Shown here piece by piece: positions 6,782 to 7,542 of a stretch of DNA of 64,000 nt. The translations under genes were made by a program, and so were the position numbers. Below the pieces are notes generated by a model. That model ran no database searches. It saw only the letters and a list, made by a program, of their open reading frames with translations, and was not told the DNA's origin. This DNA is from Candidatus Omnitrophota bacterium (lineage in GTDB: Bacteria > Omnitrophota > Gorgyraeia > Duberdicusellales > 4484-171), in assembly GCA_028703535.1 (NCBI GenBank), contig JAQVMQ010000001.1, positions 8,818-72,817 on the forward strand. The letters run 5' to 3'. How positions within the stretch are numbered: position 1 is the stretch's first letter; each line of letters begins with the position of its first letter.

Positions 6782-6820
6782 TTGCTCTCCCCGAAAGAAT
6801 TTTGTAAGTTATAAGTATTT

Positions 6821-6850
6821 ATAATAACATATAACTCGCACCGATTTCAA
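6821..6850 (-). promoter_or_regulatory. Candidate sigma70-type promoter for EF-G fusion gene (TTGAAA-18-TATTAT), followed by GGGGAGAG SD
   Basis: Hexamers read on minus strand upstream of start at 6781. Confidence 0.3.
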
Positions 6851-7037
6851 CTCAATTTTGAAATAGTGCTCCGCCAGTAAATAGTCGATAGATACCTTGT
6901 CGTGAAGATATTGAAAAAATTTATAATTATTGCTTATTTGTTAAAGACCCTTGACTTTTCAAACGACAAAAAACTATCTATAAATAAAAAGTTTAATAAA
7001 CCAATCTCGCATTATACATTTCCAGCGACACTCCTAA

Positions 7038-7070
7038 CTTTACATTTCGAGCAACACTCGAAATGTAAAG
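7038..7070. promoter_or_regulatory. Perfect 14-bp inverted repeat (ctttacatttcgag caaca ctcgaaatgtaaag) overlapping a 19-nt direct repeat; candidate operator in divergent intergenic region
   Basis: Read directly; direct repeat tacatttcCagcGacactc (7013-7031) / tacatttcGagcAacactc (7041-7059). Confidence 0.4.
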
Positions 7071-7542
7071 AAGATATCCTAAACCAAAGAAAGTGTGAAT
7101 TATGCAAAACCTAAAACTTAACATTTTCGCGTGATAAAAGATTAACATCTTGACTTAGTAATAACACTACTTAACATGTAGTTCCACAGAATCTTTAGCA
7201 TTATATCTTTACGTTCTAATATAAACAGTCCGTGCAGCTCCTTACAAACCTATATGTATATAGTCATATTTGCCTACTGGAGATATACAATACCTATTAA
7301 TACATCACAACCACTGTCTCCCTTTTTTCCACACTTTAACAGCTCTTATTTCAAGTGTCTGCCAGTCTGCAGGCAATAGCACTGGCGGACACAGTAAGCC
7401 GACAACGCTAACGGCTCCAACAACATTAATATAAACTATCGGGTTAGTCCCCTAAGTAATACACACGGGAAACGGCTAAAAACTAAAGACTAATTTCCCT
7501 TGACCTTTATACAACAATAAGTAAAATAATATTACTTTCTTT

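Follow-up and report, generated by a model that had tools for sequence, protein, structure and literature searches.

Operators of dimeric helix-turn-helix repressors that carry auxiliary half-sites, such as those of the lac O1/O2- or phage type, are the closest described counterparts of a palindrome module that we analyzed in an intergenic region of an uncultured Candidatus Omnitrophota genome. They share with it a two-fold symmetry, cores that lie two turns apart, an extra half-site, and a place in a divergent promoter region, directly beside a -10-like hexamer. Typical operators are shorter and imperfect, whereas the arms of this module are unusually long and perfect (14 bp); it also differs from such operators in having no nearby regulator, in having no second site in the 64-kb stretch of DNA that was analyzed (here called the window), and in lying far from the proximal promoters. 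The palindrome is not known to match any named box (CIRCE, LexA, Fur, BirA, CodY, parS, or NBS).

Three other kinds of element resemble parts of this region. Rho-independent terminators are likewise stable intergenic stem-loops, but the palindrome stem is AT rich and has no U tract, while the genome's own terminators are GC rich and end in UUUCUUUUU tails. The hairpin ends of single-strand-acting mobile elements (IS200/IS605-type PATEs, REP elements, and oriT nick-site hairpins) have in common with it a perfect short-loop hairpin, which here sits in a lineage-specific noncoding insert of ~600 nt; in contrast to such elements, the spacer contains neither a transposase nor a relaxase gene, lacks a matching second end and further copies, and has no boundary repeats above chance. 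In AT-rich genomes, GC peaks often mark structured RNAs, and the GC-rich structured small RNAs and leaders of these genomes are similar to a second element of the region, a GC peak of ~160 nt with a strand-biased, better-than-shuffled fold. This GC-richer patch differs from them in having no Rfam family, no promoter or terminator frame, and no conservation, and its fold statistics are moderate.

Flanking genes and length of the spacer

The M16 peptidase encoded in the window matches MDD4293892.1 at 100% identity, which drops to 40% for the next relative in the database; exact-protein look-ups with the window's own M16 and EF-G proteins gave no match. Pfam confirmed the identities of both genes that flank the spacer (EF-G and M16 peptidase). 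The EF-G fusion ORF is continuous and encodes a membrane-anchored protein of 1036 aa, in which an N-terminal transmembrane helix is followed by ~330 aa of coiled coil and acidic linker and then by a complete EF-G, all in frame. On the other side of the spacer, mutS, mutL, and two unknown ORFs lie close behind the M16 gene on the same strand. The first-pass annotation had described a spacer from 6782 to 7542 between divergently transcribed EF-G fusion and M16 genes, and these limits stand, because homologous N termini in relatives support the start codons of both genes. The spacer is the largest truly noncoding stretch of the window; the remaining large gaps contain small genes.

We also made several observations on the genes themselves. 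The EF-G fusion ORF is found in the relative L167 as well (3329 to 6466, minus strand; 1045 aa), and positions 1 to 972 of L081 (minus strand) encode a homologous N-terminal part with 36% identity, while public gene calls retain just the EF-G portion of 698 to 702 aa. This membrane-tethered EF-G paralogue may be a candidate of interest in its own right. Directly downstream of it is a PIN-domain gene (3194 to 3628, minus strand), which has no adjacent antitoxin ORF and is missing from the same position in L167. The M16 start is ambiguous. ATG 7543 gives a signal-peptide-like N terminus, as in relatives, has no Shine-Dalgarno sequence, and lies just 15 nt past the -10 box; ATG 7588 is preceded by AGGAG at a distance of 8 nt and serves as the start in the public annotation (850 aa), and its use loses the signal peptide. 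Elsewhere in the window, a 920-nt gap contains two tandem paralogous ORFs of 77 aa (27886 to 28119 and 28282 to 28515, both on the minus strand), which are precursor-peptide-like, with near-identical N-terminal halves (M.Y.KPKVTEIELD.SQAILAACMVAPGAWF) and divergent, GC-rich C-terminal halves.

The gene pair is kept in only two more distant relatives, L081/L082 and L167, whose M16 peptidases are 40 to 42% identical to that of the window. There, the divergent fusion ORF and M16 gene are separated by 165 nt and 161 nt, respectively, compared with 761 nt here, and the other divergent pairs in the window are 58 to 108 nt apart. The short spacers of the relatives appear to be essentially the two proximal promoters plus leaders. 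Since these spacers are so short and their proximal promoters match those of the window, ~600 nt of the spacer (approximately 6855 to 7495) is specific to this lineage. The first-pass annotation had pointed to related genomes as the place to look for conservation of the spacer elements, and we found the palindrome, the direct repeat, and the GC-patch stems to be absent from the only two syntenic relatives, which are very distant.

Four same-species contigs that come from other samples (L084 to L086 and L196) are 99.9% identical to the window, and their spacers either show no differences or are not reached. Because the spacer is identical in them, they are uninformative on constraint and give no covariation. 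In one other sample, a 19-kb contig of the same species ends within the spacer, at points that differ between two assemblies (the L084 start corresponds to window position 7137 and the L085 start to 7366), a possible hint of population heterogeneity or of a drop in coverage. The short contig L196 starts at window position 7532, as expected given its length.

Table 1. Positions of the features of the divergent spacer in the 64-kb window.
Feature	Position	Strand	Sequence or layout	Remarks
Divergent spacer	6782..7542	.	761 nt	Between EF-G fusion ORF (3671-6781, -) and M16 ORF (7543-10140, +)
Proximal sigma-70-like promoter, EF-G fusion gene	6821..6850	-	TTGAAA-18-TATTAT, TG extension	10/12 match
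Upstream direct copy	7015..7033	+	TACATTTCCAGCGACACTC	Repeats the left arm, the loop, and the right arm's first 3 nt of the palindrome; matches 7041-7059 at 17/19 positions
Perfect palindrome	7038-7051 / 7052-7056 / 7057-7070	.	CTTTACATTTCGAG / CAACA / CTCGAAATGTAAAG	14-bp arms, 5-nt center, 100% complementary
Candidate secondary promoter	7071..7099	-	TTCACA-17-TATCTT	9/12 match; abuts palindrome right arm
Candidate secondary promoter	7150..7177	+	TTGACT-16-TAACAT	9/12 match, chance level
GC-richer patch, predicted multibranch fold	7314..7477	+	Closed by 7314-7322 / 7467-7477	z -3.26
12-pair stem	7355..7392 (arms 7355-7366 / 7381-7392)	+	GUGUCUGCCAGU / ACUGGCGGACAC, 14-nt loop	One T:G pair
Small hairpin	7397..7416 (7397-7401 / 7412-7416)	+	AGCCG / CGGCU, 10-nt loop	5 pairs
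Proximal sigma-70-like promoter, M16 gene	7500..7527	+	TTGACC-16-TAAAAT	

The palindrome module and the GC-richer patch

The perfect 14-bp inverted repeat with a caaca center that had been reported at 7038 to 7070 lies exactly there, with full complementarity, and is the longest perfect short-loop hairpin across the 64-kb window. In 100 random 64-kb sequences drawn from a first-order Markov model, the longest stem was 9 to 13 bp, and none of the 100 contained a stem of 14 bp. The hairpin has a folding energy of -21 kcal/mol and a fold z-score of -7.2, and when 100-nt segments from both strands of the whole 64 kb were ranked by fold, the segment that contains it was third of 2556. The palindrome is identical in the independent assembly L086 and is therefore not an assembly artefact.

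The 19-nt direct repeat described together with the palindrome is also real, with 17 of 19 positions identical and a second copy at 7041 to 7059, but its first copy is at 7015 to 7033 and not at 7013 to 7031. With the first copy in this position, three copies of the half-site TACATTTCNAG fall in 53 nt (7015 and 7041 on the plus strand, 7057 on the minus strand), and the window has no other exact copy. The third half-site, 26 nt away, has diverged slightly, while the two palindrome arms have remained identical, and the TACA and TGTA cores of the palindrome are 21 bp, or two helical turns, apart. The first-pass annotation had proposed searching for further copies that would define a regulon; no second copy of the palindrome was found in the 64-kb window, even in a relaxed search that allowed up to 3 mismatches, and no copy of the module or the spacer was found in 195 related and unrelated loci (~1.6 Mb fetched). 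Apart from the palindrome, exact repeats in the spacer are no more frequent than in shuffled sequence, and the 56-nt module from 7015 to 7070 is the only strongly nonrandom element of the spacer.

The higher-GC segment noted previously was evident as a GC content of 0.46 to 0.48 for positions 7300 to 7449, compared with ~0.29 to 0.33 on either side, which places the patch 15 to 18 points over the local GC. Its 10-bp stem, given as gtctgccagt/actggcggac, was located at 7357 to 7366 and 7381 to 7390 and extends to 12 pairs, and the second 5-bp GC stem was found as the small hairpin in Table 1. The T:G pair of the longer stem would be a U-G wobble on the plus strand and a C/A mismatch on the minus strand. 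None of 200 shuffles folds as well as the predicted structure of the whole patch. For positions 7335 to 7434, the plus strand has a fold z-score of about -3.9, which falls in roughly the most extreme 0.5% of windows across these 64 kb and corresponds to ~10 comparable windows; across the patch, the plus strand folds better than the minus strand. This structure is thus only moderately unusual. That the region is more than plain spacer is borne out by the palindrome module, which greatly exceeds chance expectation, and only weakly by the GC patch.

Promoters, terminators, and rejected identities

Each flanking gene has a well-supported proximal promoter, and the module is 190 nt and 430 nt away from the two. 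A GGGGAG Shine-Dalgarno sequence stands ahead of the EF-G fusion ATG at 6781, and the TGnTAT(T/C)AT -10 element of this promoter, compared by eye, is common to L167. Upstream of the M16 start, inspection by eye rather than a scan revealed a similar -35 element and a TAAAAT -10 element in the relatives (TTGTAT-17-TAAAAT in L081 and TTGTAT-18-TAAAAT in L167). Two further promoter-like sites lie nearer to the module. That at 7071 to 7099 would direct transcription at the EF-G fusion gene from a predicted start site within the palindrome right arm; that at 7150 to 7177 is a candidate that would yield a leader of ~360 nt or a small RNA spanning the GC patch. Because the region has about as many promoter-like matches as chance predicts (6, compared with 4.2 expected), the site at 7071 to 7099 is only a putative promoter.

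No terminator-like sites were found between 6600 and 7700, and no U tract follows either hairpin. We excluded the palindrome as a canonical intrinsic terminator, as a U tract is missing from both strands. Canonical terminators, with a GC-rich stem and a U tract, are in use elsewhere in the genome, for example after the gene for an RRM-domain protein (21869 to 22165). This strong terminator (21771 to 21868, minus strand) consists of GGCGCCUCAGUG...UAUUGAGGCGC followed by UUUCUUUUU and has the best fold z-score of the window, -8.2.

Searches for known families gave little. With Rfam 15, there were no matches at the gathering threshold in the whole window, and at E values up to 10 the spacer matched just spurious eukaryotic miRNA and snoRNA models (E values of 0.5 to 9), caused by bare hairpins. 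The tRNA and tmRNA search found nothing in the spacer, and the spacer had no match in the IMG/VR, phage, and plasmid collections and no similarity elsewhere in the 64-kb window; IMG/VR matches to the GC stem pattern were unrelated chance matches. No DNA-binding regulator is recognizable within ~10 kb or in the downstream operon, and a literature search on Omnitrophota and intergenic regions found nothing relevant.

With minimum lengths of 20 aa for ORFs and 28 aa for stop-free segments, the spacer contains nine and eleven, respectively. A small protein gene or pseudogene was rejected, since the nine longest stop-free segments (31 to 77 aa) have no Pfam match. With a dicodon model trained on the window's own genes, the ten longest segments scored -0.28 to 0.41, compared with 0.66 +/- 0.20 for real genes, which rules against a coding spacer. 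A replication origin was rejected because the spacer has one DnaA box with 1 mismatch, which is at chance level, and no cluster, and because GC skew is uniformly negative over the window with no switch. The only match in the spacer to a sigma-54 promoter plus activator site (TGGCAC-N5-TTGC) has 3 mismatches and lacks the GG. Two possible element boundaries, a third copy of the GC-stem arm (GTGCTCCGCCAGT, 6866 to 6878) and an imperfect direct repeat whose flanking copies lie around both -35 boxes (6942 to 6959 and 7484 to 7508), were dropped because both were at chance level in shuffling controls. A MITE or insertion-sequence remnant was likewise rejected, as the best direct and inverted alignments of the left with the right side were matched by 26% and 36% of shuffles, respectively.

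Competing explanations for the module and the patch

The feature is real, lineage specific, and in no known family. The interpretation in the first-pass annotation is partly supported, and several of the checks that it proposed came out against it. We lean slightly toward a protein-binding site, with a structured RNA and a nonfunctional relic nearly as likely. In this tentative reading, positions 7015 to 7070 would be a duplex-DNA site for a symmetric (dimeric) protein, placed on a candidate secondary promoter, in ~600 nt of noncoding DNA (~6855 to 7495) that the lineage would have added between two proximal promoters that stand back to back, one for the EF-G fusion gene and one for the M16-mutS-mutL operon. 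A dimeric protein could contact the two 14-bp arms on one face of the helix, where the cores are two turns apart, and the upstream 19-nt copy could serve as an auxiliary half-site. Because the module abuts the -10 box of the candidate promoter at 7071 to 7099, a protein bound there would block or modulate a second minus-strand transcript that enters the EF-G fusion gene from this distal start. The GC patch would be a separate element, most simply a plus-strand RNA structure in a leader from the distal promoter or in a small transcript, a suggestion consistent with the better fold of the plus strand and with a wobble that this strand alone tolerates.

The operator reading, which the first-pass annotation had also raised, draws on a two-fold symmetry that shows no mismatch in 14 bp and lies far outside chance expectation, on arms that stayed identical while the third copy drifted (consistent with a symmetry constraint), and on the TTCACA-17-TATCTT site right against the right arm. 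The missing U tract, which leaves no canonical terminator, agrees with it, as do the length of the spacer relative to those of the relatives and of the window's other divergent pairs and the lack of coding potential. It is weakened by the lack of a DNA-binding regulator within ~10 kb or in the operon and of a second site in 64 kb, even at 3 mismatches, by the distance of 190 nt and 430 nt to the proximal promoters, and by the chance-level quality of the adjacent promoter match. The elements are also missing in both syntenic relatives, and the same-species contigs show no spacer differences, so no constraint is demonstrated. Moreover, an unbroken 14-bp stem with a 5-nt loop equally fits selection for a hairpin of RNA or of single-stranded DNA. 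A structured RNA, the other function suggested originally, is somewhat doubtful and could take two forms, both of which could hold. The palindrome could form the hairpin at the 3' or 5' end of a small transcript, such as a plus-strand RNA of ~90 nt with a single-stranded CACUCCUAAC (anti-Shine-Dalgarno CUCCU) ahead of the hairpin; positions 7314 to 7477 could be a plus-strand domain, whether as a small RNA or as an extended leader for the M16-mutS-mutL operon. The great stability of the hairpin, with its unbroken stem and hairpin-sized loop, speaks for such an RNA, and an alternative pairing, between the right arm and the upstream copy, would be possible. The GC excess of the patch, its plus-strand z-scores (-3.26 to -3.9), and its strand-specific U-G wobble point the same way. 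Against an RNA, the covariance search that the first-pass annotation had in mind matched no family in Rfam beyond the spurious models, neither hairpin has the U tract that the genome's canonical terminators use, promoter-like sites are at chance level, and the GC-patch hairpin has ~10 comparable windows in the 64 kb; the elements are absent from the syntenic relatives, and the identical same-species contigs offer no covariation.

It is also possible, if doubtful, that the ~600 nt are a nonfunctional relic of an insertion or duplication (a decayed mobile element, a gene fragment, or a slippage product), in which case the palindrome would either have served once as a recognition hairpin (a transposon, rolling-circle, or transfer-type end) or have arisen recently by templated duplication, and would now play no part for the neighboring genes. 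The insert occurs in this lineage only, while relatives keep the gene pair with spacers of 161 to 165 nt; it occurs once and lacks a regulator as well as any promoter or terminator logic, the partial 19-nt duplicate resembles a duplication product, and the 19-kb same-species contig that ends in the spacer at 7137 or 7366 (two assemblies of one sample) gives a weak hint of heterogeneity in the population. However, terminal inverted repeats, flanking direct repeats, and target duplications are not above shuffled controls, no other copy exists in the window or the 195 loci, and the virus, phage, and plasmid collections (IMG/VR among them) gave no match. There is no residual coding signal, and apart from the GC patch the spacer has a composition like that of native intergenic DNA, which argues against a recent foreign arrival. 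Decay would not be expected to preserve 14/14 pairing, and compact genomes usually delete useless DNA. Very unlikely, in our estimate, is a low-copy dispersed palindromic repeat of the REP or MITE kind with further copies outside the window. Perfect palindromes with short loops are typical of REP- and MITE-like families, and our inspection covered 64 kb of the genome; no second copy appeared in these 64 kb or in the ~1.6 Mb of fetched loci, and the spacer has no terminal-repeat or target-duplication structure.

We consider it unlikely that the spacer as a whole is an undescribed, lineage-restricted regulatory unit, composed of a plus-strand RNA (the GC patch), a hairpin or operator module, or both, that controls the EF-G paralogue or the M16-MutS-MutL operon. 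The element is single copy and lineage specific, with no partner and no conservation, and therefore, on current evidence, has little bearing beyond the annotation of this genome. The palindrome has as neighbors a mismatch-repair operon and a membrane-anchored EF-G fusion of an unusual kind; should it function as an operator or an RNA element, it would offer a first way into the study of gene regulation in this uncultured lineage of Omnitrophota.
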